A stretch of 64,000 nucleotides of DNA from Phoronis australis (Eukaryota > Animalia > Phoronida), in the NCBI GenBank assembly GCA_002633005.1, contig NMRA01000642.1:1-64000 (forward strand). The letters are read 5' to 3'. This document shows, piece after piece, positions 17,459 through 64,000 of this stretch. Both the position numbers and the translations under genes were made by a program. Under the pieces are notes generated by a model. That model had not been told where the DNA came from and did not search any database. It saw only the letters and a list, made by a program, of their open reading frames with translations. The stretch's first letter is position 1, and each line of letters opens with the position of its first letter.

Positions 17459-17507
<49 letters not shown>

Positions 17508-26300: not shown

Positions 26301-29300
26301 CCGGGTGCAACACTGGAGCGAAGAACACACTTGACAGGAACTATCTACCTGACGCTAAGTATCACGGAGCAAGGATCTTCACTCAGGTACGGAAACGACA
26401 AACCACGCTTTAGAAATATGTAAATAGGCGGAATCGGGGTACACCAGGGTCATTCCACTTACAGAAACGGTCACTTAGTTACTACCACATATTTTACACC
26501 CACTGGTTTTTTTAAATGGCTTTGACTACCATACGCTACTTCAAATCGTACAAAGTGGTCCAATGGGCAAAATAATGGGAACTCGAATTTGACTTGGTGG
26601 GGCCTTTGAAGCAAGGGGGATTCAATAACGCTTCCGAAACACGAGCAAGCACAAAACGTCTGTTGTGATGAAAGACTTAAAGCCCGAACGCGTACATGCA
26701 CATGAACTCTGTTCCTGATTAAGATGTTAAGACAAGGGACCTTTAGTGTCACAGAGTGAAAATTAATTATTCAATAATTTCTTTTCCTTGTCACCAAAAT
26801 ATTTTGGTGTGTCTAAATTGGCATTTTTTGACTTGTTTCAAGTATATCAATGCCAATGTTCCAACCTTCACTAGGTTAAAGTGGTCCATGTTCAAGAGGT
26901 TCCTGAGGACGGAACCTGGCAAGTGACATACAGGCGTTGTCATGGCGACGAAGTATGCAAAGACGAGCAAATCGTTAGGGCTGATATCGTCATCTTGGGT
27001 GCGGGGTCGTTAGGCTCCACAGAAATTCTAGCGAGGTAAATGCCTGACATGGTTAAACGATGAATATCGTAGAACAGTCGGATTGTCATCATTTAAATTT
27101 TTAAAATATTCCGCAAGCTTTGTCGCTTTAATCTAGCACATAATCTTATACTTGTAAACCGTTTGAAGCGCTTATCCTGCACAGTGATAGGCCTACTTGC
27201 ATATTAGCTACGGCATGGTGTTCAACGTTTTCAGGTCGAAGGAGCTGGGTTTGAACATATCCGACACAATCGGGATGGGCTTCAGTGGAAACGGAGATCA
27301 GGTGGGCTTCAGTTACGCCAACGATGAAAAGACGAAGAGCTTGGCCGTTTCGTCTGATTACGAAGAGGGCAAGGCCGACCCCCCTGGTAAGCTTCATTCT
27401 CTTAATTAGTAAATGCATAACGTTAACATTTATCAATTTATAACAATGACGTCAACTGTGATATCAGTGCATGAATGACGTTTGTCTCTCTTTTGTATTG
27501 GACTAGGTGACATTTGAATTAACCTCGATACAGTCGCTATTTCCACAATGCTTATTTTTGTAGAGCTCTATTGAACGTACACATGAAGTTTACAATGCGT
27601 ATTTCCGGTGCTATCTAGCGGAAAGTATTAAACGAATGCACTACACGTACAGTCTTCCCGATCTTAGAACTAAATCTAAAGTTACACGAGAGTTGATAAA
27701 ATTATCAAGTGTCAACACAGAAAGCCCAATGAAGTACTGAAGAACTGTGAGTCCATGAAAACTCTAAGTATAATCTTAAGTGCTGTTTCAAAGGACTTAT
27801 CAAAACAGAAACACTTAAACACAAATAATAATACATCCGATGAGTGAGAGTCCCATACATGTACATGTACCAAATCATTCAGCCAAACAGGTGAAATTAT
27901 TGCTCTCCCTGGTCTGGTACGAGTTACTGACGTGTCTTCGTTGGTAGGAGATACTGGCGGAGTTCCAATGGTTTCATCCACTATCGTTTCGGTTGTAAGT
28001 TCGCAGTCGTCACTAAAATCTGTATTCGTGAACTGTTGGGAACGCGAAAGCATATCCTCGAAGACATAGACTTTCTTACAATGTGAACTGTTGCGGTTAT
28101 TCGACTTGTTGGCAGATGTACGTCAAACTGATGTCATGCAACTTTTGATGTTTTATACCTCATATGGTTTCGGATCGTAAATAAAAACAGTCATGGGTTT
28201 GTTTAGCTGACGCTGTTTGACGAGCACAGTGCTTCCAGGTTGAATCGTAGGGTTTTTGCTGTACATCGAAAGTATACATTTGATTTATGACAGTGTGTTT
28301 TGTGTCACATTATGTATACTTTGAAATGATGCGCGTTTAATTTTTAGGCAAATCGCTGTAGACTTTTCATTGACGTTGTAACGAACGGCTTTGAAAATAA
28401 AACAATTTACAATGACCTGAGCTCTCTACACAGGCCCCTGCATTACCAGTATCCTGGATTTACGCGACTTGAAAGACAAAATCACTCCTTACCATGATCA
28501 GCTGATAATACAGGACACTACGGTAGCCACAGCGGTGATCGACAGCTTCAAGGCCTTGCTGTTCTTAGGGTCGTCTCTGTACTCACACGACACTGACCCT
28601 AGTGACGACTTCCAGCAGTTTGTGGACAAGATTTCAGTAAGTTGATCTCAGAAGTTTTATAAACACCGTGGCCGTAGTGTACAGACATCAAAATGCACTG
28701 CATGATGTTGACGCAGTGACAACTGAGTTTTCTGGAAACTGTAATGACGTATGACTTTTTCGAGAGTAAACGGAACGGTGCACTCATTCGCAATTGCCTG
28801 TATATAAAACACAAAATTCATAGCAACAATCCGCTGTGAGCTTGTTTGTCGTCTTCAGGAGTTTCTATGGACAGTTGCAGATGACGTTGTCAAACACATT
28901 TGACAATCTGCACTTGCCAAAGGATAGGTGATATATTTCAAAGCAGGGCCCGAGCACTACATTAAACACCTAGACAACGGACAATGTTGTCAGGGCTCCG
29001 TTGGCCGGTTGCATGGAACAGTCCAAAAAAGGGACACAACAAAGTTGTCTACCGCGTGTTTGTGCGTCTCATTTTCAATTTTTGGCATTGATAGAAATCA
29101 ACTCCACGTGTACGTTGATTTTTGAATATTGTTGACAATAAGTAGGGATCTTTTCATGCGACGTCTCTAACTTAAAGATTGCAGAAAGTCCCTAATAATT
29201 TTGAATGGATCAAGCCTAAGTCTTGAATTATACAGGTAGTATAAGAAAATGTCACTTGTCAAAGAAGAGCTCAAAATAACGGTATCAAGCGACTGAAAAC

Positions 29301-32300
29301 TATATAACATCTGTAAGTATCGAACGAAACAAATATGCAAAAGATTTAGGGCACTTAGTTGAGTCCCTACTTGGAACTGTTTCATGCAACCGGACACAAA
29401 GTTATAAACCACTGGGCAATTCTTTAACTCCAGGGTGACGCAGCCATGAAGACCCTCGGTCTACTCGCCATGAGCCATGATCACGTGGACGTAAAAGGGG
29501 AGAAGAACAGCGGCCAAATAAAACTGGACAAAGATGGCGTTAGGATCGAGTGGCCGGACTCCGGGAGGAGTCCAAACTATAGAAGGATTGACGAAGTAAA
29601 TGTATTCTAAATTAAAAACATGTGCACACCCAAGAAATTAAACGTTTATGCATGCGAATTTGGAGGATAGAAAACATTGGGCCGTTCTTTTTTCCATGTA
29701 TTTTATATGCTCCTGCATCATGTATTGCCAGTAATGTCCAGCACTGCTAACCATTAAAACGCAGGTTTACAGGCTCGCCGCAAAGGCTTTGGGCGGTACC
29801 TTCGTTGAGAACCCACTATGGTCAGATCGTTTAAAGCCGATATACAGCGGTCGTGGTACAGTTACTGTTCATCCACTAGGAGGATGCAACATGGCGGAAT
29901 CTGGGAAGACGGGAGTCGTCAACCACAAATGCCAGGTATTTTTGGGTGAGTCTCGACCTTTTGTTTACGATTCCCGGGTTTACCAACAATTGCCCCAGAC
30001 TCTCAAGAATTAAGAACTATTGGTGAAATCTAAATTTCTGCAATGTCTTAAGTATAAAATACTGTATTACCTAACTGGTTCCTTGTGACTGTACATATGT
30101 GTACACATGCTAATTGTCTTTCATGTTTTTCCCTATTTAACTCGTGCCCTGCCGGTTCTAAAGGACACGTGGCAAATACAGGCATATCTTGTAAATGTAA
30201 CAGGGCCGTCCCGGATAACACGGCGACGGAACTCTCTTTTGTCCCCGAGATAAGAAAGCGCGTGACTTAGTTTTGGATATCAGCCACATTTTCGTGTCTC
30301 TCATTGAAATCAGGTAGGCGAAAAATTTCACATCACACATCCACGGGTATTTATTCTGTTTATCAATCTTTTTCAAGTCGGAGTTGGAGGCCACACCAAA
30401 GCTACATGTATGATATTCTTCGTTGGCATTGGAAGAACAAAACGAGTAATGCAACCAAGAAAAATAGTTAAGAGTCAGACAACAATAAATAATATGTGAA
30501 ACTCCAGTGGCACGAAAACGACGCAGCAAATATGCCTGGCGAATTTTTACGGCATTATGTGTACAACGAATTTCGAGTGTCGCTGTGTAATCCGAGACAG
30601 CCCTATTGATGTTGGTTTTTAAACTATCTCTGAAATAAAACGTCATATGTTTATAGGTAATACTGGGAATGTATTAAGAGGGCTCTACGTCGTTGATGGC
30701 GCAGTCATGCCTCGATCAGTAGGGATAAATCCCTTGCTGAGCATATGTGGAGTGGCTGAACGATGCATGCGACTCATGGCCAACGATTACAACTGGATCA
30801 TTAACTACGATTTTGTAGGAAATCCGGGTAGGGTTTATGACAGGTAATGTCAAACCTACAATGTGCCAATAGGTCGGTAAACTGAAATACAAACGACTTA
30901 AACGATTCATTTCTCAAGCGGGTTACTACAGATTGGCCTAGTCGGATATGTGTCCGTTTTCTTTACTCAAGTCCGTGTGTTCGAGTCCCACTGAGGCCCA
31001 GTGGACACCACCATTAAGCCAACTGTGTAGCTCCTTAGCTCGATTGTATCCATGTATCAATAAATCAAAAATATGGCTCTAGGTGATCAGGGCAATGGGT
31101 TCACCCGAGCGGCCTGCAAACGTCTGTTACAACTTGCATCAGCCCCTGTGCAGTTATTCTTTGTAAAAGGTTATGGTTTGTACACGTCTTGCTCTTGATT
31201 GTCGCACTTCCGGTTTATCACTCAAGTTTGACATTACTCAACTGTTTATCCTAGCTACCATTGACTGGTCAACGGCCAAGACACCCGGATTTAGAATTGA
31301 AGAGACCATGAAAGGAAGTTTCCAAATGACCAACAGGAGCAAGACCTCTGACCTTGAGGTCAACCTGACTTTGTCACACAAAGATTTGGTGTACTTTGTT
31401 GATAAAGACCCGAATCACCAGGCCCTGGTAGATGGCGTTGTGAAATGTCCTTCATTGTCTAAGCAGCCCTTGACTGCGAAAGGTACATGTATGTGAAAAT
31501 TACCCTATGCATTACAAATTGTCACTTATGTGGTGTCACTGTTGTTCTTTTACAAAAATCTTGTTCAACATTCTTCAAAAATTTATCCGCCGATAACCAA
31601 GTCAAATCTAACTATCAAACGTCAAAGTATATTACTAAAAACCAACCGCTTAAAGGTGCTGGTCTCACGTACAATGTACAGGTTAAAGAAATACGAGAAT
31701 CCCAAGTAAAAAAGTAAAATAAAAAAGTACTTTAAGCGTTGTCAATCGTTCTAAGCCAGATATATAATGTGCTTACCTCTTCACATTAATTGACTTACCC
31801 TAGGTATGGTACAAATGTTTGTAAGCGACACAGGTCCACATAGCAAGATTGGTCAACATTACATGAAATATCGACTGCAGCTGCTGCCGCCTGGCAATAA
31901 AAACCAGTACTTCTTTTATGGGGAGAAGGATATTCGGAAGGATCGTAATTTCGAAGTTGGATACGCAGACACAACTACCCTAGTATGCTGCATATACAAA
32001 GGAGCCAGTGAGAACGGTAGAGTATTGGAATTCGGGGATGCTGTCGTTATGCTAATGGAGCGTGGTGCGGTTGTCGGGCTCGAATACTCCGTTACATCAC
32101 AGATAACTTTGTGGCATGTAAATAACATAACGTAAAAACACACTTATCTTTTGCGTGCACCAAAACTCGGGTCCTCAGCAACACGGTGTTTGGTGTGCTT
32201 ACGACAAAGCAACCTGTCTTGATGATTTAAACATCATTGTGTAACTTGCTTAGGCAGTCATTGGAACCATATCGGAAGATAAAACCCGGAATCAGTTAAA

Positions 32301-35300
32301 GACTCACACTCCGTATGTCACAGATTGGATATTGCTGTACTTAGTGGTTGGTCTTACCCAACAGTTGCCGTGCAAATGACTAATCGCCAGGATTTTGAGT
32401 CACGCTTAACTGACCATTCAGAACTTATCATTCTTGACACACCTTCGTTTCCAAGCCACCATTTTGCCCTTCAAACAACACGTTGCCGGGTAAAACGTAA
32501 TGTTTGTTAGTCGACATTACGCAAGGAGACGGATCTTGCGATAGGTCAATTAGCTAAAAGCGTAGGTCACGCTTTCGCGTTTGGCAGACTCGGAAAGGAT
32601 TTTTCAAATTGTACTCGTTTTTAATCTGTTTATGGCCAAACTGGAAATGGTATCATTATAAAGGTTTGAAAGCGAAAATCAAAAGGCCTCAAATGAGCGC
32701 ATAGATTATCCAATGCGACGAGAAAACTTGGAAAACAAATCTCTTCACCTAAGGCACAATTTATGAATCAGGTGACACGTGGACATCACCTCTGAGACTT
32801 CCCCGGGTATTTACTAGCCGGCAGCAGTTCCACGTTACATTTGAAAAACGAGCTCAGTTCCGTTAAGGAAATATCTCGACTAATTGTGTATGCCATATTT
32901 TTCAATTTTTCTAAGTAGAACTTACAATGCTGTTTGCTGGTACATTTTTAAGACTTGGAACAAATTAAATGGTTTTAAAATTACTGTTTTCTGTAGTGTT
33001 TAACCGGAAGTTAAAGAAGACTTATTTTGCACAGGGTTGACATTTTAATTAAAGTTATTGTGTTTTGTGCCATTCCTTTCAAGCTGGGAAATTACATATA
33101 CCCACTTTCAATTTCCCATTTTTACTCTATTTCTTAATCAGTAAGTCGTAAGAAGCGTCCTGAAATTATTATGTTTTGGGCGTGATTTGCGCATTCTAAG
33201 ACCTCATTTCATCATAGATTATAGACAACAGATATGCAACTCCGACATTTTCTTGCGTAGTATTCTAGAGGAGGCGCTACTCTCCTAAATTACCAATTTC
33301 AGTTTCCGGTTAGTGTATTGTGACGGGAAATTCTCGCATCCATTTTACAGCCCAATGCATATAAAAAGAGATTTCGGCATTGAAACGCTGTTCAAAGTCT
33401 TTCCAATAGTAGAACTATTGGTATCGCGAGTAGCTTACTTTTGGAAACCCAACCACACAACGGCCGACCGTGATTACCAGACGACATGCTTGCCGGAACT
33501 AAAACTTGCTAATTTTGCCAGGTGACGTCACGGCTGATGCGTAACGTCACATATTTCGTCCATTGAAAATATACGGAGTTGGCGGTCCATGTACCATAGT
33601 CTATGATTTGTTGTAAGAATAGCCATGCATGAAATAAGACTGGCTGCAACAATTTTATGAATTAGTGTACTACAGCACAAATATCTCTTGCGAATTTATG
33701 GATTTTAGGACAATACAGTTGAGGTTGTTTAAGCTTCATGTGTGTACAAGTAGGTACATACATGTACGCCCGTGTGTGTGCGCGTACACCTGATATGAAA
33801 GACCCTGGTTCACGCTACGCATCTCTCTTCTTATTCCCCTGTGTAGATGCTGTCAAGATCGGACAAGGTTTGATAAAGATGCCCCTCGCGTCATTGCTCA
33901 ACTCGCTCACAACTCTAAAAATCACAAACGTGGAAGGTGGATTTGCAGATCAAGCTCGCCTTAAAGCTCAGTTCTTCAAACTCTTCTTGGGAGAGATTTA
34001 CAACATTTACAGTCCTTTTGCCAGCAGTCAGATGTGAGTCCGAATGATTAACAAAGGTGTGGACTTAAGTGTCCTTTTGAGGTCACTTAAGTCAAGACCA
34101 ACTGCTTTATGTCCCTGAATTTTCTTATATGTGAATATCATAAGAAAATGAAATACTTTCTTATTATGGTGGAAAGCTTTCTTTCTTACGTTTTTAAGCC
34201 ACTATTTGATATGAGTATATTATATTAGTATATGGACTACAAACCAGTCGAATAAGGCTCTTTTGTAAGCGTTACAGCTCCCCTTTCTGACAACATTTGA
34301 AGAGTGTGTCTTTCTGACAATAGTTGAAAATCTTCTCCGTAAAATTTCGCAACAGCACGAATTATGTGCTATAAAAACGAAACGTATACGAATCTGTTCT
34401 ATACCGGATTTTTTGGTCGATTGCGTGGAATAAGGGTTTCGCGTTCCGTAATAAATCATTGAATTGGGTTTGATATCATGAGAGCTACAACAATCTATTA
34501 AATCTTTGCCCGTCTTCTTCAGGGCCCTACCTAACAACAGAGTGAAGAGACCGTTAAATCTTCCTGACCACGCCCTGCCTGTTGTCTATCAGGTACTTAC
34601 GGAAGACGACACTGTCAACAACCTGATACGATATCAAGGTGGGACATCAGTTGAAAATTGAACTGCTTTTGATGTTGGGTACTATCCGGTCGAATGTAAG
34701 GGAAAAAATTGCTTACACTGTTTTGTAAAAGACGCATGCTTAGTAGAGTTAAATTTGTCGTGCGGTCCTCATGAGTTGTGTGGCACATGATTTTTGAAGA
34801 ACTCCCGCGACTCAGAAAAAGCTGCTGATGCACTGCGACAGTGACCCCCTCTAACGAGAACCCTTTTCATTATTGAGCAATTACCATCAATATCAGTTGA
34901 ACCCAATATACATATCAACATAGGCTGTGTTATTTTCTTCACCAGGTGGCAGCAAAGGGCCGGTTTTGCTACTCCATGGTCACGGGACATATTCGATCTT
35001 GTTTACCCTGGATACGGTATCTGAAAACATGGCGGAGTTTCTGGTGAAAAGGAAATACGACGTCTGGTGTCTGGACTGGAGATGTAAGTCTTGATTTGAT
35101 CTCCAAACTTCAATGTAAATGCTAACACTTCGGGAAACTAGGTCGCATGCTCGTCGCATACAGAACTGTAGATGGGCGTATCCATTGTTTATTTTGTTTT
35201 TCTTTCTTGAACTGAAGATAATGGCGAGCATGTATCGGTAACCAGCTGGTGTGCACCCGAGGTACGATATCCATGCGACCTGTATTGTTATGTCCAACAA

Positions 35301-38300
35301 AGACGCCACGAAGGATAACAATGACAGTCCTCTTAACCGATAACCATGCGACGTGCTTACGCCCATGGTGTACATCCTGCATGTAAAACAATGACTTGCG
35401 ACCTACATACGAGGTCAATTGGCAAAATAACACAGAAGTGTGTACATTGGTGTAGAAGACTCCGATAACCATGCGACGTGCCTACGCCCGTGGTGTGGAT
35501 CCTGCAAGTAAAACAATGCCTTGCTACCTACTGTACATACGAGGTCAATTGGCAAAATAACATAGATGTGGGTACATTGGTGTAGAAAACTTTGTTATTT
35601 CAAGAGTCATGTGGAAGATGTTCATTTTTCCATTTCAAAGGTCTCCGTGATTGTTCGTGGCTGCCTTTTAGAGCATTTGGGTTATTGAGAGTCTCCAGCT
35701 TAACATGCAAAATAGGGTCGATAATTAACTCTGCATTAGCTCGTCGTTTACATATGCGTCCAAAGGCACTCTGCAAAGCCTGGTTCCACCGAGACTGTTA
35801 TGACTTGCCAACCATGGAAAAGAAATGCATGCGAGAAATACAGCAGGAAAAGTATGTGGGCCAATTGAATCTTAATTTCCCTCTTCATTTACTTATAGGT
35901 GCTCCTTATCGACCAGAAGCTCGCAAACCTTTTACTCTGGACGACGTGGCCAAGTACGATATCCCATCCGCTGTTGATCGCGTGCTGAAGGAAACTAATC
36001 ACAAAGATCTTGAGGTAAATCAGGCACAGTGTACCAACAGAGATCTTACTGTGTCTGCTTTAACAATTTTTGTAACTGTATTGACAAATTTAGCAGAATT
36101 TTCCACTTCGCTGCTGCAATATTTTTTTGTGCATAACTGATAAATATACCATAAGGCGAAGTCAGAAATGGAGGATGTTTTTTAACCGTATTCCGTTATT
36201 TCTACTCTAGACGTTATATCTTATTCATAAAAAAACACGCCACGCTTGACAATTTTCTTCCCCTGATTGGGTACGTTTTGGAGTTTGCCAGACAGGGGTA
36301 CGGGGCAAGGGTAAACAGTTGTCAAGTCCCATTGTGTACTGCAGCAAACCCAGGACGACGGTAAATTCTTTCCAAGATTTGGTGTAATTCCTGAAGGTGA
36401 TGATCGACATTTGACCTCCCTTTGAACCCGAGTCGGCTTGAGAAATGAATTCAGCTCAGTCATGAACCTTTGGAATTATGAACCTTCTGATTTTAGGTCG
36501 TTTGGACTTTTTTGATTTTTGAACCTGCGGACATATGAACCTCCAGGACTATCGAGTGGTATCTTACGAGGACAAAGAGTGAAACACATCCTGGACTCCC
36601 TTCTCTTAAGAGTGTGTTCTTTGAAATCGTCGAGTGAATTAGACCAAGTCGTTGATATCACGTTCGTTTCTATGATTGACTTCTGTTGATACCTGCGTGT
36701 GTCAGACTGAGTTGTTTTAGATGTTTGGGTTCATTGCCTGTCCGAGTGTCTTGATCATTTAGATCCTATGTCACTGTCTGGGAGCGCCAGCCTTCTGGAT
36801 GTCACGACTTGGCGGCTTTCTCGACGGCAAGATTCGTTGTGTGGCTAATTTACAAGGAAGCATTACGCCATACCCCAGTCCTCTGAACAAGGTAGGATTG
36901 CAATGTAAAGACTTAGAGTGCTTGTTAATGTGTTCAAGTGGAGTTGAATTTTATAGCTCTTTTAACGTATTCTAATTTTCCGAAAAAAATTTTAGTCTAA
37001 CCTATCAAAAGGTCGGGATTTCGTGGCGCTGAGAGCAGTCGTACATGTACATGTATATTGCAAACACTGTTCACTGGAAAAGAATGAAACCATTGTAAAA
37101 ATGCCAAAAAAAAAACGCCGCATTACCTTTAGGTGTAGGTTGCGGGTGGGGAGGGGGGGGGAGGGGGGAGCGTGGAGGCACCTCTCGGCCGAAATGTTGG
37201 GAAACAGAGATAGGTTTTCGCTCTCAACATTTATTGCCAAGTAATTAACGATTAACTGAAAAACTTCGACACATCAAGGTTGTTTTAAAATATGACTGCA
37301 AATTGATCAGACTCTCATGACATCAAATGCTTCCTGCGCCTGTGCTTTAGTCACTTTGTCTTCGACGATCCGGTAATCTGTTACTCTAAGTACAAAAATG
37401 AAAGTCAACCTCGTACTACGGGACAACGCGAAAGTAAATCCTTCAACAAGTCCTGGTGAGGGGACGCTCCTATTAGGCGCAAAAGATAGTGTCATATTTG
37501 TTTTAAAAATAATTTTGCCGGATTTTAATGAGTTTTGCAAGCTTTTGCATTGCCTCATTTTTGGTGTCGACACGTGTCAACTTGTAATAGGACACTGAGT
37601 TCATCGTTTTAAGGGATATAAGAATGTCACACAACGAGTTCAGACGAGTGGTATCGCATGTTTTATTTCACCGAAGCTTTCTTTACAAATTTCAGGTAAA
37701 AGTTGGCTTGAAGTTATCGAGCTTTTTTGAAAGTTTTGCACTGGAAGCCATTGACATATACGATGACGACTTGTCTCTCTTGGACAGAATGCTACAGAAA
37801 TTCTCCAAAGGTAAGTTGTCGCTGAAACTACGCTGTATAAGAGTAAGATAAACATGTGGCGTTTTCACTACAACTTTGTAACACTGTACCGCCCGCCAGT
37901 CACGCGATGTAAGCGGCACTCATCGTTCAGCATTCCGACGCTGATTTCTAATGACTGTTGGTGACTGATGGTATGTTGTTTTGGCTTTTATAGTCGGCAA
38001 GCTTACTCGCAATGTACAATGTACATGTACTGGCTGATGCACCGCCGCAGATTGTACGTCTCCTTATTAAGCGCGCTCAACTGATCAACTCAATAGGCCT
38101 ACATTTAACGCAGTACCTCCATGTCCTGGGTTCCTGATAATTGAAATTCATCCCTTTGGCATCAGAATAAAGTATATTCGTTTTTGCGTTAGTGTACAGT
38201 ACATTGTAATTATCCTCTTTTCCCCAATATTTTTTACATTTTCTCATCTTTTTCACATTTTNACTAAAAGTTTCTTTTCGGAAACTCACCCGGGACTCGG

Positions 38301-41300: not shown

Positions 41301-44300
41301 ATTCAGCATTGATTGATGTAACTGTCACTGATAAACCTGTTGTTAGAAATCATTCCAAACAATAATACTGTTTTGATGCACAAAAAGATCCCGAGTGCTA
41401 CGTCAAGTATCGCAAAACACATCACAACAAACAAAAAATTAACCTGACTGGCGACTGCAGCGAAGTCGACATCGGCGAGTACCTCAGTAAACAGGTATCA
41501 GTAGAATAAACATAGAATAATCGTTAAAATAACCACAAACCTTACCTTTGTAGTAGGGTGTGCTTACTTCCTCTCATAGAAGCTTCCTTTTCACGCAATC
41601 TCTGATTTAGTTGGCACAGCTGCAAGCCATTTCACCATGTATTTCAAGGGCTCGCGAAATCGAGGCTCTTCATCTATCACCACTAGTACACGCGCGCCCT
41701 CTGGTTAATGTGGATTTTCCGAATAGCCCCATTGAACTGCTTTTGATGTTGGGTACTATCCGGTCGAATGTAAGGGAACAAATTGCTTACACTGTTTTGT
41801 AAAAGACGCATGCTTAGTTGAGTTAAATTTGTCGTGCGGTCCTCATGAGTTGGGTGGCACATGATTTTTGAAGAACTCCCGCGACTCAGAAAAAGCTGCT
41901 GATGCACCGCGACAGTAACCCCCTCTAACGAGAACCCTTTTCATTATTGAGCAATTACCATCAATATCAGTTGAACCCAATATACATATCAACCTACCCG
42001 CATAGGCTGTGTTATTTTCTTCACCAGGTGGCAGCAAAGGGCCGGTTTTGCTACTCCATGGTCACGGGACATATTCGATCTTGTTTACCCTGGATACGGT
42101 ATCTGAAAACATGGCGGAGTTTCTGGTTAAAAGGAAATACGACGTCTGGTGTCTGGACTGGAGATGTAAGTCTTGATTTGATCTCCAAACTTTAATGTAC
42201 ATTTTGTAAATGCTAACACTTCGGGAAAAAAGGTCGCATGCTCGTCGCATACAGAACTGTAGATGGGCGTATCCATTGTTTATTTTGTTTTTCTTTCTTG
42301 AACTGAAGATAATGGCAAGCATGTATCGGTAACCAGCTGGTGTGCACCCGAGGTACGATATCCATGCGACCTGTATTGTTATGTCCAACAAAGGCGCCAC
42401 GAAGGATAACAATGACAGTCCTCTTAACCGATAACCATGCGATGTGCTTACGCCCATGGTGTACATCCTGCAAGTAAAACAATGACTTGTGACCTACATA
42501 CGAGGTCAATTGGCAAAATAACACAGAAGTGTGTACATTGGTGTAGAAGACTCCGATAACCATGCGACGTGCTTACGCCCGTGGTGTGGATCCTGCAAGT
42601 AAAACAATGCCTTGCTACCTACTGTGCATACGAGGTTAATTGGCAAAATAACAGAGATGTGGGTACATTGGTGTAGAAAACTTTGTTATTTCAAGAGTCA
42701 TGTGGAAGATGTTCATTTTTCCATTTCAAAGGTCTCCGTGATTGTTCGTGGCTGCCTTTTAGAGCATTTGGGTTATTGAGAGTCTCCAGCTTAACATGCA
42801 AAATAGGGTCGATAATTAACTCTGCATTAGCTCGTCGTTTGCATATGCGTCCAAAGGCACTCTGCAAAGCCTGGTTCCACCGTGACTGTTATGACTTGCC
42901 AACCATGGAAAAGAAATGCATCCGAGAAATACAGCAGGAAAAGTATGTGGGCCAATTGAATCTTAATTTCCCTCTTCATTTACTTATAGGTGCTCCTTAT
43001 CGACCAGAAGCTCGCAAACCATTTACTCTGGACGACGTGGCCAAGTACGATATCCCATCCGCTGTTGATCGCGTGCTGAAGGAAACTAATCACAAAGATC
43101 TTGAGGTAAATCAGGCGCAGTGTACCAACAGAGATCTTACTATGTCTGCTTTAACAATTTTTGTAACTGTATTGACAAATTTCGCAGAATTTTCCACTTC
43201 GCTGCTGCAATATTTTTTTGCGCATAACTGATAAGTATACCATAAGGCGAAGTCAGAAATGGAGGATGTTTTTTAACCGTATTCCGTTATTTCTACTCTA
43301 GACGTTATATCTTATTCATAAAAAACACGCCACGCTTGACAATTTTCTTCCCCTGATTGGGTACGTTTTGGAGTTTGCCAGACAGGGGCACGGGGCAAGG
43401 GTAAACAGTTGTCAAGTCCCATTGTGTACTGCAGCAAACCCAGGACGACGGTAAGTTCTTCCCAAGATTTGGTGTAATTCCTGAACGTGATGAACGACAT
43501 TTGACCTCCCTTTGAACCCGAGTCGGCTTGAGAAATGAATGCAGCTCAGTCATGGACCTTAGGAATTATGAACCTTCTGATTTTAGGTCGTTTGGACTTT
43601 TTTGGTTTTTGAACCTGCGGACTTATGAACCTCCAGGACTATCGAGTGGTATCTTACGAGGACTAAGAGTGAAACACATTCTGGACTCCCTTCTCTTAAG
43701 AGTGTGTTCTTTGAAATCGTCGAGTGAATTTGACCAAGTCGTTGATATCACGTTCGTTTCTATGATTGACTTCTGTTGATACCTGCGTGTGTCAGACTGA
43801 GTTGTTTTAGATGTTTGGGTTCATTGTCTGCACGAGTGTCTTGATCATTTAGATCCTATGTCACTGTCTGGGAGCGCCAGCCTTCTGGATGTCACGACTT
43901 GGCGGCTTTCTCGACGGCAAGATTCGTTGTGTGGCTAATTTGCAAGGAAGCATTACGCCATACCCCAGTCCTCTGAACAAGGTAGGATTGTAATGTAAAG
44001 ACTTAGAGTGCTTGTTAATGTGTTCAAGTGGAGTTGAATTTTATAGCTCTTTTAACGTATTCTAATTTTCCGAAAAAAATTTAGTCTAACCTATCAAAAG
44101 GTCGGGATTTTGTGGCGTACATGTACATTGCAAACACTGTTCACTGGAAAAGAATGAAACCATTGTAAAAATGCCAAAAAACGCCGCATTACCTTTAGGT
44201 ATATGTTGCAGGTGGGGGGGGNGAGGCACCTCTCGGCCGAAATGTTGGGAAACAGAGATAGGTTTCCGCTCTCAACATTTATTGCCAAGTAATTACCGAT

Positions 44301-47300
44301 TAACTGAAAAACTTCGACACATCAAGGTTGTTTTAAAATATGACTGCAAATTGAACAGACTCTCATGACATCAAATGCTTCCTGCGCCTGTGCTTTAGCC
44401 ACTTTGTCTTCGACGATTCGGTAATCTGTTACTCTAAGTACAAAAATGAAAGTCAACCTCGTACTACGGGACAACGCGAAAGTAAATCCTTCAACAAGTC
44501 CTGGTGAGGGGACGCTCCTATTAGGCGCAAAAGATAGTGTCATATTTGTTTTAAAAATAATTTTGCCGGATTTTAATGAGTTTTGCAAGCTTTTGCATTG
44601 CCTCATTTTTGGTGTCGACACGTGTCAACTTGTAATAGGACACTGAGTTAATCGTTTTATGGGATATAAGAATGTCACACAACGAGTTCAGACGAGTGGT
44701 ATCGCATGTTTTATTTCACCGAAGCTTTCTTTACAAATTTCAGGTAAAAGTTGGCTTGAAGTTATCGAGCTTTTTTGAAAGTTTTGCACTGGAAGCCATT
44801 GACATATACGATGACGACTTGTCTCTCTTGGACAGAATGCTACAGAAATTCTCCAAAGGTAAGTTATCGCTGAAACTACGCTGTATAAGAGTAAGATAAA
44901 CATGTGGCGTTTTCAATACAACTTTGTAACGCAGTAAGGTTTCAGTCTACCCCAGAACTGTACCGCCCGCTAGTCACTCACGCGAGTTAAGCAGCACTCA
45001 TCGTTCAGCATTCCGACGCTGGTTTCTAATGACTGTTGGTGACTGATGTTATGTTGTTTTGGCTTTTATAGTCGGCAAGCTTACTCGCAATGTACAATGT
45101 ACAGGCTGATGCACCGCCGCAGATTGTACGTCTCCTTATCAAGCGCGCTCAACTGATCAACACAATAGGCCTACATGCAACGCAGTACCACCATGTCCTG
45201 GGTTCCTGATAATTGAAATACATTGGCATCAGGATAAAGTATATTAATTTTTACAATACTGTACAGTTTGTACATTGTATTTATCCTCTTTTCCCCAATA
45301 TTTTTCATATTTTGTCATCTTTTTCACTTTTTTCTTGGTGAATCTCAACGATGGACGTATTTTCTTACCTTTTGCGTTCATCCACAGAATAATAAAAAGA
45401 ACGCTGTTATGTATTTCAGTGGTCGCAGACACGGTTTCAGCAGACGAGAATGAGTGTAAGAACAGTATATGTCATAAACTGACTTTAGCATACGGGTTGT
45501 TATGGGAACATAGCCAGCTCAACAACGACACCCATCGGACACTCCATGAAATGTTCGGCGCAGGTTCTTTGATGTCGTATGCACACATGTCGAAGTACGT
45601 TGATTTAAGCGTCAAGTTATACATTATTTCATGCCATCAAGCACATATCACAATTAGAATTATTTCGAGACACTGCAACAATTTTCCTTCAATGAAAGTA
45701 TCAAATTTTCCGTGCCAAAGGCGATTATATAATAACCAACGACTGAGTTTTGCCTATCGACAAAATACACATTGTAGTTAACGTAGTTGTGCGTGACCAA
45801 GAGAATTGTCGTTGTAAAACATGTTGATATACTGTTCCAAAGTATTCATGAGCCCCCTAATTTGACGAATTAGGTAAAATGGTCCGCTTCAATCGAGATC
45901 AAACGAAACAAAAGTCCACAGGAATTCGGCGCGGATGCACAATTTGTAGGCCTGAACCTACTGTAGTGGCCCTGTTTTTTTCTTAGTCCTCGATTTTATT
46001 CAGTAGAAGGTCTGCGTACCGAGAAATTCGAGCCCCCTATATTTTAGGATGGGTGCGCGCGTGGTATTTAACATTTCTTGATGTTACTGAAAACAAGACT
46101 CACGTCTTTTACATAGATTGTTCGAACAGAGGCGTCTCACGGGATTTAATGATGACGATCTCTACATGCCTGGGTACTCGGAAAAGATCGAAGAGGTGTT
46201 GTCCTCACGTCGCTCTAAGAAGTGGTTGGGCAGACTGGATGTACCGATGATCCTTCTGATGAGTGAACTAAATGGGGTTTATAAATCACCTGACACTTTG
46301 AAGGTACTGAGCAAGACCTAGACTTATTTTAGACATAATTTGTTATAAAATGTCCTTAACGAAGCATGTTGGTCCACCACGGCACACGCTCCCGGGTCAC
46401 GCAAGACGTTTCCCACAAGTACTAACAATGTATACTGAAACTAAAGAATGGATCTGCCGAGTAAACGTGAACCGTCACAAGCCACCGGGGTCACTGAACC
46501 CCATGCTCACTCTGAATTCCAGGCTGTGAACGGTTCAAAGTATTTCGGCTGAGCTGCAAGTTACTTTTTTACGTCTTGAACCCAGTTAGATGGCATGTCT
46601 GTTTTTATTTCTGGTTCGAAATTGCCTCATCTACTGCCTAGAAAAGTCATCACTAAACATCCGATTAGCATAAATAATGACATTGTTTTAAATCTTTGAG
46701 AAGGAACTGGGACATTTTTGACACGAGAAAATGTTTTACACAGTAGCTGCCAGTTTAAAAAACTGGAATACGAAATACTTCATGTCAAAACATTCTGTTG
46801 ATTAAATTTTACATGTACAACATATTTGTGTTATACAAGCATCGGAATGCATATTGGAACTTACTTGAAGCTTGGTTGTTCCATAACTCTAATTTCAAAC
46901 ACCCCCTATGAATGACAACAACACGCCGTTGGTATACCCTTTTTTGGCTTACGCGGATACAGTGTATGTTTGAAATTATTGCTGTGCCGCTTAGCCACAC
47001 TTGAAAGGCTTCCACAGGTTTAGTCATACATCATACCCGGACATACACCGGGCGCTATACCTAGAAAGACATTGCACCTGGACATTTATCAACCCTGAAT
47101 ATGCATTGTAACTAGACTTGAATCGTACTAAGACATGAATCTTATCTCAAATTACCCATCCGCTTCTCTGAAACAAAATAAATCTCTGTGACCTTCGCCA
47201 ACGCTCAAAAGTTTGGAGATTAATTTGAAAACTCCTTTCAAAGCTTTCTAAACAGGTAGGCGTGTCCTACGCTTTTAGCGAATTACACTGCAACTGTGAG

Positions 47301-55998: not shown

Positions 55999-56824
55999 GG
56001 GGTAGTTTCATGAAACGTTTTCTGTCTTAACGTAGACCGAAATTGCACTGTTATAAGACCAAACTGTTTCGTGGAGTTTCTTAAGACCAATGTTAAGATT
56101 GAAATAGGTCTTAAGCTCAGGCAAGCTGGCCTGCTACGGAGCTGAACAATGGCTTTTGGTTTAAATGAGATGACCAGGCTTTAGGACTTCTATCATTGTT
56201 CACTATTGAGGAATAAATACCGTTGATATTTTTCATAATCTTTTATCCCTAAGTATGGCTAATTAAAGATCTTCAGCTCTGGATTCGAGAACTGTCAATG
56301 GGTGTACATGAAGAGACAATTTTATCCCAAATGTATAGCAGCGGATGTAAGGGAGGGCCAAGGGGGTAATGGCCCCCTAAAATTCTCCCATATTCCATTT
56401 GGCACTTCAGGGTTGCAATCGAATGACGGGCAAAATCCTGGCTAATACTCTGCCCTGGCCCCCCTAACTCAAAATCCTGGATCCGGCCCTGAGTGTATAA
56501 ATCTCCATTTAGAGTTTCAAAACCAAGAATATTCTTGAGACCGCATGTAACACACCACTTCGTTTTTCTAGTTTTGTGAATTCACGGCAGGTCGCAAAAA
56601 CGTAGTTTGTACTCTCACCTATGTCAAAGCCTACTTTTAACTAAGACAATAATCAAAATTACTGTCTAAGTTAAGACCGAAGACCAAAATCCGACTTCGT
56701 TTTCATGAAGCGGTATATTCCGAATTCTCGTCTTGGGCAGAAATTAAGAAGGATTTTGACATTTTGGTTTTAACCTAGAGTTTCTTGATCTTATTTCTCA
56801 ACTAAGTTTTCATGAAACGAGTCC
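55999..56824. mobile_element. Harbinger-like MITE (~825 bp) with a nested GC-rich mini-element; target of the LINE insertion in the second copy
   Basis: Ends GGGGTAGTTTCATGAAAC / TTTCATGAAACGAGTCC, flanked by CTG on both sides. Confidence 0.6.
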
Positions 56825-57888
56825 CTGTGTATAACACGTCTTGGTTATTTAGAAAAGTGTGTGGCCTTCAGTCGTTTGTGGAAATAAATAAATTCGACAC
56901 AATACATCTTCTTGTCTTGTTTATCTACACTAGGACTGCATGAAGTGGGCAATTCTCTTTCAAAATTGTAGTCGCACCGCCTATGCGGTCTTCCAACTTT
57001 GCCCGTGTGTTATGGCTTTGGTTACTTTACCTCCTTTATACAGTAGTTATCTAATGTCTATAATTGGGTATGTTAATAATCAATTAGTAACCGTCAACAA
57101 TATTGACATAAAATGGACATTAATCAGCCTGCGAGTTGTTAAAGGGACTGTCTCGCAATTTTTTCAACTTGTAAGAGTTACATATATAAATTATTCCAGA
57201 AATAAATCATCTTGCATTGAACTGAAATAGAGTTTTGTGAACAAACACATCGTTTTTGGGTTTTGGATTGTCTTCGTTGCGTTATTAAAATTTCAAGGTG
57301 TGCCTAACTCGCAATATATTCAAACCTCTACACTTTAGTAAAAGAAAGTGGAAAACGGTTTACCCATCCACCATTTTAATAAATCACTAACATGACATTG
57401 AACTTTTGAAAACATTGGCCACAAGACAACATGCGAGATTAGATGTGAAAACGAGGAACAACCTCTCTTGCCATTCAACCACTCCCCGTGTCACTCACAA
57501 GGGGCGGATCCAGGATTTTGACTTGGGGGGGGGGGCAAGGCACAGGAATAACCAGAATTTCGCCNAGAATTCGAGAACATAGCCTGCAAAAATATCAGCC
57601 CTAAAGCCTAACCATGGAAGCGAACACATTTATTCAAGGCATGAAATCTGCACTCCAGGACTCGGATATAAAGGGACTGTTCATAGAAATGTTTGAACAT
57701 ACTCTCAATGAGGCCTGTCTTCACCTAACCGAGGGGTTCAAAGATATGCTACAGAAACAACAGGACGAAACTGACAGTCTGAATAGAAAGGTGAGCGAAC
57801 TGGAGGAGCGTTTAGATGACAGCGAGCAATATCCCAAACGAAACTGCCTGATAATACACGGTGTAGAGGAAAATAAGGGGGAGAACAC

Positions 57889-58147
57889 TGTTGTGAATGT
57901 TGGTTTGTGTGGTCTCGTCTTTCGTGTTGTCATGTGTGTTCGTGTTCGTCCGAGGGTTTCCGTCAGTGGCCGGATGTTGTAAGTTCTAGTTTTGTCACGT
58001 GACTGGGGAATCGAGAGCTCTCTCTTCGTGTGGCTCTGCTGCACGCAGGACGTCTGCGCTGGTCGTCATCTCAAGCGTGTATTCAAGCTTTCATACATGT
58101 ATGAGTAGAGGTAAGCTGCACGAGATCCTGTGTATCAAGTCACAACA
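57889..58147 (+). mobile_element. Single LTR (259 bp) of a probable Ty3/Gypsy retrotransposon
   Basis: Begins TGTTGTGA and ends TCACAACA (perfect 8-bp terminal inverted repeat). It is followed after 2 nt by TGG (PBS start). The whole insert is flanked by a 4-bp duplication ACAC (57885-57888 and 58230-58233). Confidence 0.85.
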
Positions 58148-58149
58148 TT

Positions 58150-58229
58150 TGGCGTAGTTGGCAGGATACGAACCTGCGCGGGGAAACCCCAATGGATTTC
58201 CAATCCATTGCCTTAACCGCTCGGCCACA
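58150..58229 (-). pseudogene. Reverse-transcribed copy of mature tRNA-Ser (apparent anticodon GGA, probably from IGA) with 3' CCA, lacking the first ~5 nt
   Basis: The minus strand reads TGTGGCCGAGCGGTTAAGGCAATGGATTGGAAATCCATTGGGGTTTCCCCGCGCAGGTTCGTATCCTGCCAACTACGCCA. This shows a D-arm, anticodon stem ATGGA/TCCAT, the long variable arm GGGGTTTCCCC typical of Ser, a T-arm and a CCA end. Confidence 0.9.
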
Positions 58230-59384
58230 ACACTGATGAGCTAGTCTTAAACATAGCCAAGAAGTTGGAAGTTGACCGCACCCACAGGCTGGGTGCTTTT
58301 AACAGAGATGCCAGGGGTAAACCTAGGCCTATCATCGCTAAGTTTACTAGTTATCGTAAGCGAACAGAATTTCTGAAGAAAAGATCGACACTTGCGGTTA
58401 AACAGATGGATCAAGGGCGTGCCTCGGTGCGAAAAATATATATCAACGAAAATCTCACAAAGAGGAAAGCTGCTATTTTTGCAGAGTGTCGCAGATTAGT
58501 GAAACAGGGACACATCAAGTCGGCATACGTGAGAGATGGGAAGATCTTCATCAAGAAGATGAATGATTTTCATCAAGAAATGATGCGAATGGAACAAGTA
58601 AACGAGTTTGTGGAAGGACTTTGGAAGAGTCGGCGCCAGACGCCCACGCCTGAACGGGTGTTGAACTGTGAGTAAAAGGACGGCATATAGTTACTTAATA
58701 TACATGTAGCTAGTTGTGCGGAACTGAGTTAATATTTTAAGCGGCGTTTAAATGTTTTGCATTAAATGCTTTTGCGTAGACTGATATCAGTGTTATCTCG
58801 TGATATGATACTAGTACTTTTACATGTATTTCATGTTAATCTGGTGTTTCAGTTTCTCTTTTCAGCTATCTGCGTATTTAATTGCTTTTTTAAGTTTTAG
58901 TTCCTATTTGAATCTTTTCCTAGGCTAGTTATCTCTTGTAATTACGAGCTTTAAACTTTTTTTTTCTTTGTGCCAATGCTGAACATCTGGTAGTAACTAA
59001 ATCATGGTTGTAACCAATGGCTTGTGCTCTAATGCAGTGTTTTCATTCGGAGCGCTTCAATTGTTCTTCCTTTGAATTTCCATTCCATGGGGTATACCTT
59101 TATAACTACAGTAACTAGTCAAATACCCAGGGCTTTAGCATGCATAGGATGACTGTCGATGCGGGCTGCCTTCTCAGATTCAGGGCTCCTGCTGTCTGCG
59201 GTATATGTTGTGGGTGCTGCTACAGCTCACTCATTTAGTGATTGGTTTCCTTCTTTGTCTTGATAGCTGTTTGTCCATTGTGTGTCTTCTCTTATACAAG
59301 TTTTTATGTTCAAGGCTGTGCAAATATTCACTGGTAGCATGTGCAGAAAATTTAATTAATCCAATTGAATACGTTAAATGTTTA

Positions 59385-62300
59385 ATGTCACTGAGAGCAG
59401 TACTTGAATTTAGTCGTAGTCCACGAATTAAATTTCAACAAGAAAGGAAATTAAAATACTTTTTTTAAACTGTCAGGGACTTGGAGATTCCGAGAAAAGA
59501 CTTGATGTTCTAAAGTACCTTAAAGATAAGTCACACAATATTTATTGTCTTCAAGATACACATTTTGTGAAGGCTTTGGAGGATCAAGTCCAATTACAGT
59601 GGGGATTTTCCTGCTATTTCAGTTCATTCAAGAGCAATGCAAGAGGAGTTGCAATAATGCTGAGTAATAATTTTGAACATCAAATACACGCTTGGAGAAG
59701 CGACAAAAGTGGGAATTATATATTACTTGATATAACAATGGAGGGAGAGAGAACTACGCTTGTAAACTTGTATGGACCAAACGAGGATAAACCTGACTTT
59801 TTTCGAACCTTTTTAATGAAATTGAAGAGTTGGGTAATGAAAAAATTATTACATGTGGGGATTTCAATCTTGCTTTAGACCAGTATAAAGACACGCGATA
59901 CTATAAGCAACGCAATAATACAAATGCCAGTGAGAAATTAAAAGAACAAATGCAAATGTGGGACCTCGTAGATCCATTTCGGGAATTCCACCAGAATTTA
60001 AACCGTTATACATGGAGACGCAAAAACCCTATAAAGCAGGCGAGACTGGACTTTTTCTTACTTTCAAAAAATTTACTTCACTGTGTGTGTAAAATTAACA
60101 TAATAAACAATTACAGATCCGATCATTCAGGTGTCCTACTGAGTGTTAAATTAAAAGCAATTTTAAGAAGGAAAGGCCTTTGGAAATTTAACAATTCTTT
60201 GTTGGATGACTTGGAATATACTAAAAAGATTAAAGAAAAAATTACTGGGGTAAAACGTCAGTATGCTGTTCCAGTTTACAATTATCAAATGATCGATACA
60301 ATTTCTAACAGTGAAGTTCAATTCGTAATTAATGACCAGTTGTTCTTAGACGTTCTGTTTATGGAAATCCGCAACTACACCACTATAGACTACTCAATAA
60401 GAAAGAAGAAAAAACACATCAATTATGAACGTGTTTTAGAAGAAGCCATTAACAGGCTGGAAAGCAAAGACAACATGACTGAAGGTGATCTAACAACTTT
60501 AGAAGAAAAAAGACCAATTTACAAGAATTAAGAAGAAACACTTTGAAGGGCTATGTTGTCCGATCAAGAGCAAACTGGATTGAAAGTGGAGAACGCCCGA
60601 CCAAATATTTTTGCAACTTAGAATCAAGGAATTTTTTTAGTAAACTTATATATGCTATAGAAACAGAAGAAGGATAAACTATTACGGATCAAAAGGAAAT
60701 TTTATGCGAGAAATTTATAAAAATTATATTCTTCGAGGTCTGAGAGCGAAGAAATGTTGAATAATGTACTTAGACATTGTCGGTTCCCGGTACTTTCGGA
60801 GTTGGAGGGAATCCAACTAGAAAATGAAATTAATATTGATGAATTATTTGAGGTATTAAACAATACAAAAAATGAGAAAAGTCCAGGCTCTGATGGCTTT
60901 ACGATGGAATTTTTGAAGTTCTTTTAGGAAGACATAAAACATTTTGTATTGCGGCACATTAAATGTAGTTTTGAAAAGGGACAAATGTCCACAACTCAAC
61001 GGACTGGGATTATTACATGTATTCCAAAACCAGACAAGCCGAAACAGTTTCTGAAAAACTGGCGACCAATAACTTTACTGAATAGTGTATACAAACTGGC
61101 TTCGGGATGCGTTGCAAACAGAATTAAAAAAGTCCTAGATAAACTGATTTCAAATACCCCAACTGGATTTATTAAAGGAAGATTCATGGCTGAGAACACA
61201 AGACTAATTTATGATATTATGAGGTATACAGACAAATACAACATTCCAGGACTACTTGTGTTGGTAGATTTTGAGAAGGCTTTTGATAGTGTTTCCTGGG
61301 ACTTTATATTCAAAGTCCTGAATAATTTCAATTTCAAAGCCAATATCATTCGATATATAAGAACTTTTTATAATAAACCAATTGCCCGTGTCATACAAAA
61401 TGGATTTCTGTCAGACAACTTCATACTAGAACGCGGATGTCGACAAGGTGATCTTCTCTCTGTGTACTGAAATTTTGTCCATATTGATTAAACATGATCC
61501 TGACGTGAAAGGTATTAAAATCGGCGACGAAGACTTCGTTATAACACAATACGCAGATGACAATTTTCACGTTAGACGGAACTCCAAGATCCCTGGCAGC
61601 ACTTATGAATAACCTAGAGTTCTATGCAGGGATGTCGGGGCTGAAGATAAACTATTCTAAGATATAATTAGTGTGGATTGGAAGTAGAAAATTCTCTCAA
61701 GAAGTGTTTCACCGCACGCGTTGAAAACTAAAATGGGGTGACGTTGATTTTAAGCTTCTGGGTATTAATTTCAACGTGAACTTGGATACCATGTCCAAAG
61801 ATAACTTCGATGCAAAAATAATGGAAATGAAGAGTCTGGTTAATATATGGTCTCGTAGAAAGCTGACTATCTTTGGGAAGGTCACAGTATTAAAAACACT
61901 TGTGCTTCCAAAAATTTTACATCTGCTAATGCTGCTACCAAGTCCCAATGATACTACTTTTAGAGATATTGAAACTTTGTTTTTTTAATTCATTTGGGAC
62001 GGAAAACCTGATAAAATAAAAAGAGGAGTACTCATTAAATCCATAGAAGAGGGTGGATTGATGATGGTTGATGTCAAAAAATTTAATATGTCTTTAAAAA
62101 TTTCATAGATTAGAAGATTCTTTTTAACAACATCCCCATGGACTTATTTGTTGCAAAAAGATATCGGGCTTACTAAAGATGGAATGTTGAACTATGGAGA
62201 CTATAGATTAACTAGATCGGATAATTGTAACTCTTTTTGGGCAGAATGCTTCCAGTATTGGAGCCTTTTAATTCACAAACAAACTATTTCAGGTCACGAA

Positions 62301-63206
62301 GATGCGGTGTCAATTAATGTGTGGGCCAACAGTTGTATAACGGTGGAATACAGCCCTTGTATTTATGAGTCATTCGTTGAAAAAGCTATAATATTTGTGA
62401 ACGATTTTTTAGACTGGAATGATAACTTCTACATCTTTGAAAGTTTCCAGACGATTCATCAGATTAATGTCAGCTTTCTCAAATATTATTCAATTGTCAG
62501 TGCAATAAAAAATATCTGAAAACGTTTTCCAAAAACTTAATACTAAAAAAGTTATGTGGACCACTTGTACCTTTTTCCCTAAAAAATATTATTTTGACGA
62601 AAAAGGGGTGTCGGGATTCTTACCGTATTCTGTGCAAAAATGACATAATACCATCGGCTCAAAAGAAATTCGAAGTATTGGGATTTTCCCTATCACAGAT
62701 GTGGAACTTCTATTACAAACTTCCACATGAATGTACGAATAACACAAACTTAATTTTCTTTCAGTTCCGCTTACTGCATAGAATTTTTCCTATTAACTAC
62801 TTTTTAAATAAGATTAGATACGTGGACTCAAATGCTTGTACTTTTTGTAAATGCTTTCACGAAACTCTAGAACACTTATTCTTTGAATGTGAATATGTTA
62901 CATGTAATTCTTTCTGGCACGGGGTACGTCTCTAGTTAACGACTGCAATACAAGTAAATTTTGAAATAGACAAAACCACCATAATATTTGGTCTTCAAAA
63001 TGAAAAGAATAGAATTTTGAATTGGTTTCTTTTACAAACTGAAATTTTCATTTTTAAAAGAAATTTGCTAACGTCAAACCTAATTTAAGATGTCTTAAAC
63101 TTTTTTGAATGAGTGCTTTAATGTAGAAGTTAGTGCTTCGTTAAACACACGGAAATTTAATGATACAAGACAATGGGAAGACTGGAAATGTGTTTTTGAA
63201 ACATGA
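59385..63206 (+). pseudogene. LINE ORF2 (APE endonuclease - reverse transcriptase - C-terminal Cys/His zinc motif) with frameshifts and stops
   Basis: Endonuclease motifs NCQGL, CLQDTH, NLYGPN, CGDFN, ARLDFFL and SDH. RT motifs KSPGSDG, NWRPITLLN, DFEKAFDSV, RGCRQGD and QYADD (61547-61561). C-terminal CTFCKCFHETLEHLFFEC. Confidence 0.92.
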
Positions 63207-63392
63207 GGGGACCCAGAGAGTTGACCAGATGCCAGAACAGAAACTTAAGTAGTACTTTTTAACTTCGAAGTAACGATGAAATGCTTTCTCGTTAATTTTA
63301 TGCACAGCTCTGTACGTTGTTGTGTTGTGTTGTGCTGTGTGTATATTTGTATATGTATTTGTCTTTTGTAATAAATGTATTAATTGTGAAAA

Positions 63393-64000
63393 AAATACCG
63401 TTGATATTTTTCATAATCTTTTATTCCTAAATATGGCAAATTAAAGATCTTCTGCTCTGAATTTGAGAACTGTCAATGGGTTTACATGTATCAAAATTGT
63501 ATAGCAGCGGATTTAAGGGAGGGCCCTAAAATTCTCCCATATTTCATTTGGAACTTCAGGGTTGCAATCGCTTGACGGGCAAAATCCTGGCTAATACTCT
63601 GCCTTGGCCCCCTTAACTCAAAATCCTGGATCCGGCCCTGAGTTTATAAATCTCCAATAAGAGTTTCAAGACCAAGAATATTCTTGAGACTGCATGTCAC
63701 ACACCACTTCGTTTATTTAGTTTTGTGAATTCACGGCAGATCGCAAAAATGTAGTTTGTACTCTCACCTATGTCAAAGCATACTTTTAACTAAGACAATA
63801 ATCAAAATTACTGTCTAAGTTAAGACCGAAGACCAATATCCGACTTCGTGTTCATGAAGCGGTATATTCCGAATTCTCGTCTTGGGCAGAAATTAAGAAA
63901 GATTTTGACATTTTGGTTTTAATGTAGAATTTCTTGATCTTATTTCTCAACTAAGTTTTCATGAAACGAGTCCCTGTGTATAACACGTCTTGGTTATTTA
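63393..64000 (+). repeat. Near-identical direct copy of 56215-56851, starting at the LINE poly-A tail
   Basis: aaataccgttgatatttttcataatcttttat... through ...ataacacgtcttggttattta is colinear in both places. Confidence 0.95.

Follow-up and report, generated by a model that had tools for sequence, protein, structure and literature searches.

How did a copy of nearly a whole primer tRNA come to lie beside an LTR-like segment within the coding region of a LINE, and by which route was it joined to the chromosome? The locus that raises this question lies in Phoronis australis contig NMRA01000642.1, of which positions 1-64,000 of the forward strand form the window, namely the whole 64-kb stretch of DNA analysed here. 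An insert of 341 bp (57889-58229) is located in ORF1 of the LINE, and a 345-bp block consisting of this insert and one ACAC copy splits the ORF (Table 1). The first-pass annotation had described the locus as ACAC, a 259-bp segment, TT, an 80-nt complement of tRNA-Ser and ACAC again, and all coordinates of this layout are borne out. We lean towards the interpretation that an LTR retrotransposon produced the insert as a plus-strand strong-stop DNA that was extended too far and was then likely inserted once into ORF1 by integrase.

Table 1. Positions, within the window, of the parts of the insert, of the diagnostic bases in its tRNA copy and of the surrounding LINE.
Feature	Position	Strand	Basis or remark
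LINE ORF1 5' half (coiled coil and start of conserved domain)	57614..57888	+	homologue comparison
Left target copy in the 4-bp reading, ACAC	57885..57888	+	inside 7-bp repeat 57884-57890
LTR-like segment, 259 bp, TG...CA	57889..58147	+	ends and PBS position
Perfect 8-bp terminal inverted repeat of the LTR-like segment	57889-57896 / 58140-58147	+	
TT spacer, 2 nt, from LTR end to PBS	58148..58149	+	
PBS-length part, complement of tRNA-Ser nt 76-59	58150..58167	+	starts at the CCA complement
Over-copied part, tRNA complement from nt 58 to nt 6, with CA at its end	58168..58229	+	extendable to nt 4 (58231)
T at tRNA position 58 (tRNA-Ser(AGA) has A, as m1A58)	58168	-	invariant box B A
G at tRNA position 34 (A to inosine, read as G)	58201	-	anticodon GGA
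T at tRNA position 32 (Ser-AGA of human, fly and S. pombe has C, as m3C32)	58203	-	
A at tRNA position 26 (G, m2,2G26)	58209	-	CpG decay gives the same change
Right target copy in the 4-bp reading, ACAC	58230..58233	+	first two bases are tRNA nt 5 and 4 as well
LINE ORF1 3' half	58234..58675	+	homologue comparison
LINE ORF2, frameshifted (endonuclease, RT, zf-RVT)	59432..63058	+	Pfam; alignment to L001

The two halves of ORF1 occupy adjacent columns of the full-length homologue P0001, with no gap, no overlap and no loss of target sequence. Since 345 bp is a multiple of three and the halves abut in P0001, the earlier claim that removal of the block restores ORF1 in frame holds. Comparison with P0001-P0003 shows that about 8-10 residues of ORF1 are missing just past the insertion site, at 58250-58275. 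No Pfam family is above the cut-off for either ORF1 half. ORF2 gives matches to endonuclease, RT and zf-RVT, only RVT_1 and zf-RVT being above the curated Pfam cut-off. Compared with the intact ORF2 of L001, it is spread over five frame segments, which makes the host LINE dead irrespective of the insert. The RT of this LINE, used as query in a metagenome scan, has identified nine loci among 91 candidate stretches, with identities of 41-64% and none from this species. None of these nine loci matches the LTR part, the tRNA part or the ORF1 halves in blastn comparisons, and none contains a tRNA. Two direct repeat copies (89.8%, 647 bp) flank the LINE at 56205-56851 and 63383-64000, and partial copies of this repeat are present at 21357-21508 and, inverted, at 57500-57574.

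The 259-bp segment has the TG...CA ends and the short inverted repeat of an LTR retrotransposon, the repeat being perfect over 8 bp. An 8-mer with an inverted partner 150-600 bp upstream occurs at 85 of 8169 window positions (1%), and the partner in the insert begins exactly at the junction that is set independently by ORF1. A PBS with TGG a few nucleotides from the LTR end is present as well, separated from it by a 2-nt spacer, and the same LTR-PBS spacing appears in the PBS lists of Fig. S2 of PMC10886601. Ten motifs tested on the plus strand of the 259 bp reveal no canonical AATAAA-type poly(A) signal or TATA box, variants of these being possible. From its ends and the position of the PBS only, we infer that the segment is an LTR, and the element behind it is provisionally labelled as gypsy-type. 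A solo LTR is rejected because the PBS and 62 further nucleotides of tRNA complement separate the LTR end from the right duplication. In agreement with the earlier description of an insert without gag/pol or a second LTR, neither a second LTR nor a full-length parent element is present within the 64-kb window, and no polypurine tract is found. A self-search of these 64 kb detects no second copy of the insert, other matches having E values of 0.23 or worse.

Several other features are present in the window. A degraded frame at ~27700-28400 (-), which has no Pfam match and no similarity to the 259-bp segment, is presumably similar to the C-terminal tail of gypsy-type integrases. An open frame of 182 aa at 4086-4634 (-) has a cysteine pattern that we take to be reminiscent of DNA-transposon-associated proteins. 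A GMC oxidoreductase or cholesterol-oxidase-like exon is located at 25877-26410 (+) (Pfam E 5.7e-12), and its 54 relatives, with identities of 41-50%, are found in echinoderms, lancelets, corals and bacteria, a spread that loosely indicates a marine invertebrate host. A direct duplication of ~3.6 kb with 94.8% identity occupies 34657-38261 and 41731-45332, and both copies contain a tandem repeat of 125-130 bp. Inverted repeats are seen at 29002-29045 / 29353-29396 (44 bp) and at 11647-12608 and 16333-17699, the latter pair sharing 75-83% identity and spanning an assembly gap.

The tRNA-Ser complement begins with TGG at 58150 and runs to 58229 (80 nt), as proposed, but the match goes on to nt 4 (58231) and thereby takes in the first two bases of the right duplication as proposed. 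Therefore, 80-82 of the 85 nt of the tRNA are copied, and the copy stops 3-5 nt before the tRNA 5' end. ARAGORN finds this tRNA as the sole one in the 64-kb window and assigns it the anticodon GGA, tRNA-Ser(GGA). The Rfam tRNA model gives 47.5 bits (E 1.5e-08) with a match that spans the whole model. Rfam matches to snoR35 and Hammerhead_1 are set aside since their scores are under the gathering threshold.

The tRNA copy is altered at all four sites of tRNA-Ser(AGA) that are misread by RT, namely m2,2G26, m3C32, I34 and m1A58. These sites are taken from mim-tRNAseq, in which the Ser-AGA rows show misreading at G26, C32, A34 and A58 (PMC8062790); the list is based on 8/8 rows of one set and, in another, on the first 30 rows of 56, from two yeasts as well as fly and human. 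The top misread base is A at position 26 (40-50%) and T at position 32 (43-46%), G (59%) ranks first and T (29%) second at position 58, and inosine is read as G by RT (PMC8062790). Deamination of A34 occurs in all eukaryotes (PMC10275265). Each of the four changes in the insert is thus the first- or second-ranked misread base. By contrast with these sites, the rest of the tRNA is nearly intact: 17 of the 18 stem pairs from 4:69 onward are standard, with G.A at 13:22 as the exception, and among 20 positions that are invariant or semi-invariant A58 alone is lost and the other 19 are kept. Since the stem pairs and invariant positions are almost all intact, random decay is low. Thermodynamic folding of the tRNA copy gives an uninformative z of -0.61, and pairing was assessed position by position instead. 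The probability that four random differences would strike exactly those four of 80 sites is 6e-7; for two differences striking positions 34 and 58, two sites that require no species reference, it is 1.9e-3. A26 could stem from CpG decay and T32 could be gene-encoded, and among the mim-tRNAseq rows listed there is no C32 row for S. cerevisiae Ser-AGA (PMC8062790). Changes at 4/4 misread sites together with intact stems indicate that a mature, modified tRNA was copied, and these marks and the CCA make it nearly certain that RT copied mature tRNA-Ser(IGA). The proposal of the first-pass annotation that RT ran through almost the whole primer tRNA is therefore supported by the CCA and, beyond what that annotation had noted, by changes at all four RT-misread positions.

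The junctions are more ambiguous. The direct repeat flanking the insert is 7 bp (57884-57890 = 58229-58235), or 9/10 with one mismatch, and so the duplication is readable as anything from 0 to 7 bp. Eighteen registers fit the junctions, and TG...CA ends appear in two only, which have 4-bp and 1-bp duplications. Thus, a 4-bp target-site duplication with TG...CA ends, as previously claimed, does exist as one register, but the flanking repeat is actually 7 bp long. The register ending at 58232 is rejected: its end and the left end form an inverted repeat of 7 bp, but the duplication is 1 bp only. A whole tRNA minus one base without any duplication is another possible register, set aside as requiring an extra deletion. 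Compared with the intact 3' acceptor strand, the tRNA match reaches nt 4 and fails at nt 3, and hence the AC with which the proposed right duplication starts can be counted as part of the tRNA pattern too. If integrase is assumed to have made a pure 4-bp duplication blind to the target, the extra matches at the junctions (A before, AC common with tRNA nt 5-4, and TG after) would arise by chance with a probability of ~1.4e-3.

When the copy is run to tRNA nt 1, with nt 1-3 deduced from the 3' strand, six bases at -4 to -9 are identical to the U5 end plus spacer. Position -11 is identical too, and T replaces the A of CA at -3. Of 4246 mock CA ends taken from the window, 9 show the six-base mimicry, the true odds being less extreme because LTRs often begin with TGTTG, as do many of the fungal Helenus LTRs listed in PMC10886601. 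The likeness between CCACAAC and the LTR end TCACAAC, which had been noticed earlier, is therefore real, but it is not at the joint: it lies in register with a copy end at nt 1. The observed joint is the CA 3 nt inward of the canonical end position. TG...CA ends suffice for Ty1 integrase to insert foreign DNA, and 6 bp were trimmed to reach an inner CA in three events (PMC2939329). TRIMs mobilised by gypsy elements in animals have 4-bp duplications (PMC10886601). These observations lead us to judge that, on balance, integrase joined the insert somewhat more probably than another route did. The suggestion that integrase used a cryptic CA as the right end thus describes the likelier route, but the 7-bp junction repeat leaves this route unproven.

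The anatomy of the insert, which starts at the first base of the LTR and ends near the tRNA 5' end, is that of an over-copied plus strand. Minus-strand strong-stop DNA would not extend to the LTR 5' boundary. The retroviral plus strand runs from the polypurine tract over U3-R-U5 into the primer, of which it copies 18 nt, and halts before m1A58 (PMC13191261). In the mechanism that we propose, the plus strand would have been primed at a polypurine tract, giving the left end at TG. RT would then have copied U3-R-U5 and the 2-nt spacer and moved past m1A58 through the attached mature tRNA-Ser(IGA), misreading m1A58, I34, m3C32 and m2,2G26 along the way; this is the step that has strong support. 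The resemblance of the copy end to the U5 end, in register, may have allowed integrase to engage it and to cut at the CA 3 nt inward, the inner CA being chosen because the canonical CA position reads CT. Both ends would have been inserted with a 4-bp stagger, followed by repair. The product is probably a dead, single-copy fossil.

The same over-extended LTR-tRNA cDNA may have been joined without integrase, either by microhomology-assisted repair at a staggered break or by a LINE endonuclease and RT, a route that we regard as rather unlikely. Here the duplication is read as 7 bp, and the homology amounts to 3 nt at the tRNA end and to 2 nt (4/5) at the LTR start; in a sub-variant, integrase acts at the left end only. 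The 7-bp repeat and the 9/10 match are then accounted for without chance, and the tRNA match ends at nt 4, within the repeat. This route leaves the in-register U5 mimicry without a role, however, and the left joint falls at the LTR start, where a TG...CA reading with 4 bp is available. Neither nick site resembles the L1 endonuclease motif, and the target DNA has no deletion, which also argues against such a capture. A precedent is found in Ty1, in which a dead-end intermediate ending in the PBS and two tRNA-templated bases was joined into an insertion (clone MK44, PMC2939329).

An amplified family is an improbable origin. It would have had one founder read-through, and its later spread would have been that of a tRNA-headed SINE on the minus strand, whose body derives from the LTR, or that of a minimal LTR-tRNA unit moved by a helper integrase. 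Viewed on the minus strand, the insert is a tRNA head with a 259-bp body, box A is intact, and the 259 bp contain no TTTT, the first being located in the flank at 57870-57873; therefore, Pol III could read through the body. Size and head are also SINE-like: the SINEBase criteria are <1 kb and a tRNA similarity of at least 60 nt (PMC3531059), and the insert is 341 bp with a tRNA match of >60 nt that covers the whole tRNA model. A simple-repeat tail, as found at the 3' end of SINEs, is absent, however, and the minus strand ends in the inverted repeat and runs straight into ORF1. Loss of the invariant A58 of box B, which bears on Pol III transcription, also speaks against a family. Regeneration of the ends would need a second LTR or a polypurine tract, which the insert does not have, and its stems are undecayed apart from the RT marks. 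That no second copy is present in 64 kb also speaks against a family, this being a weak test. Consequently, the idea of a mobile LTR-tRNA unit bringing A and B boxes finds little support, and the mobility of the insert is doubtful because box B has lost A58, now T, and neither a tail nor a second LTR is present.

A coincidence or artefact, in which a LINE-made retrocopy of a mature tRNA has an unrelated neighbour (a 259-bp segment or a solo LTR) or in which the assembly is chimeric, could draw on the LTR identity coming from ends and PBS position rather than homology and on the eight N runs of the gapped assembly in the window, but it is very improbable given that the CCA has the orientation of a PBS and a distance of exactly 2 nt to the end of the inverted repeat, that a single duplication encloses both the LTR and tRNA parts with none around either part alone, and that taking out 345 bp yields a continuous ORF1.

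If the insert is an over-extended plus-strand strong-stop DNA as favoured above, it bears on the view that the m1A58 stop is essential and that over-copied plus strands are non-integrating dead ends (PMC13191261, PMC8599865). At this locus, a retroelement RT at work in a living germ line appears to have crossed four modifications of the base-pairing face within a single run, and its product reached the chromosome. It is possible, and we propose it only tentatively, that integrase-made inserts of an LTR plus a whole modified primer tRNA are a recurring, overlooked fossil class, arising where the primer 5' end mimics the LTR end. Equally tentative, and tied to the same proposal, are the ideas that such inserts record germ-line tRNA modifications as fixed base changes and that a tRNA head with a terminator-free LTR body may serve as raw material for tRNA-headed SINEs, an origin that was proposed in 1993 and for which we have found no demonstration in the literature. 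Such inserts would be single-molecule records of tRNA modification for species without tRNA-seq, and they can mislead tRNA annotation, as seen from the label tRNA-Ser(GGA) that ARAGORN gives to the insert. A genome-wide tally would probe the strictness of the m1A58 stop for LTR retrotransposons as well as the origin of tRNA-headed SINEs from retroviral-type intermediates.

A search that covered mostly titles and the beginnings of abstracts, with older subscription literature largely outside it, has found no published description of a genomic insert consisting of an LTR and a whole modified primer tRNA. Older papers may describe cloned retroviral DNAs with tRNA sequence. The nearest products found in that search are the HIV-1 P1 products and the Ty1 dead-end cDNAs. 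Ty1 dead-end plus-strand intermediates were reportedly described by Lauermann and Boeke in 1997.

HIV-1 P1 and the insert have in common an LTR copy that continues into the primer tRNA complement, as far as the tRNA 5' end in P1 and nearly as far in the insert. P1, the full tRNA copy, is described for unmodified tRNA in vitro and cannot complete replication or integrate, only short forms continuing according to PMC13191261; over-copied HIV-1 plus-strand DNA fails in strand transfer and integration (PMC8599865). These statements on HIV-1 count against the reading favoured here. The insert, in contrast, has the marks of a modified tRNA at 4/4 sites and sits in a chromosome. Ty1 resembles the insert in that tRNA bases are over-copied at the LTR cDNA end and that integrase accepts non-LTR ends and trims them to an inner CA, but its over-copy is 2 nt, the experiments used overexpressed integrase and PCR fragments, and the duplications are 5 bp (PMC2939329).

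Helenus and TRIMp3 (Kojima 2024, PMC10886601) are likewise short LTR elements with a tRNA-like sequence and have 4-bp duplications in animals. As presented there, these elements have two LTRs, a PBS and a PPT, and their tRNA-like part is inside the LTR and unrelated to the PBS (PMC10886601). The insert, unlike Helenus, has one LTR and no PPT, and its antisense tRNA, which has a CCA, lies outside the LTR and forms a continuation of the PBS. A Helenus solo LTR on the minus strand is rejected as well since the tRNA is terminal, CCA is present and the inverted repeat is inner.

Ohshima and Okada are said to have proposed in 1993 that tRNA-SINEs originate from a retroviral intermediate via minus-strand strong-stop DNA (U5-R). 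In this model, the complement of an LTR end is attached to the CCA of a whole primer tRNA, just as in the insert, whose minus strand has the form of a SINE head and body; the insert differs in containing a whole TG...CA segment and in that no amplification is demonstrated. The closest parallel to the tRNA part itself is provided by mim-tRNAseq, which gives the identical four sites and base changes for tRNA-Ser(AGA) (PMC8062790). Those data come from a group II intron RT acting in vitro on tRNAs of yeast, fly and human (PMC8062790), whereas the insert is a single natural molecule preserved in an invertebrate genome.
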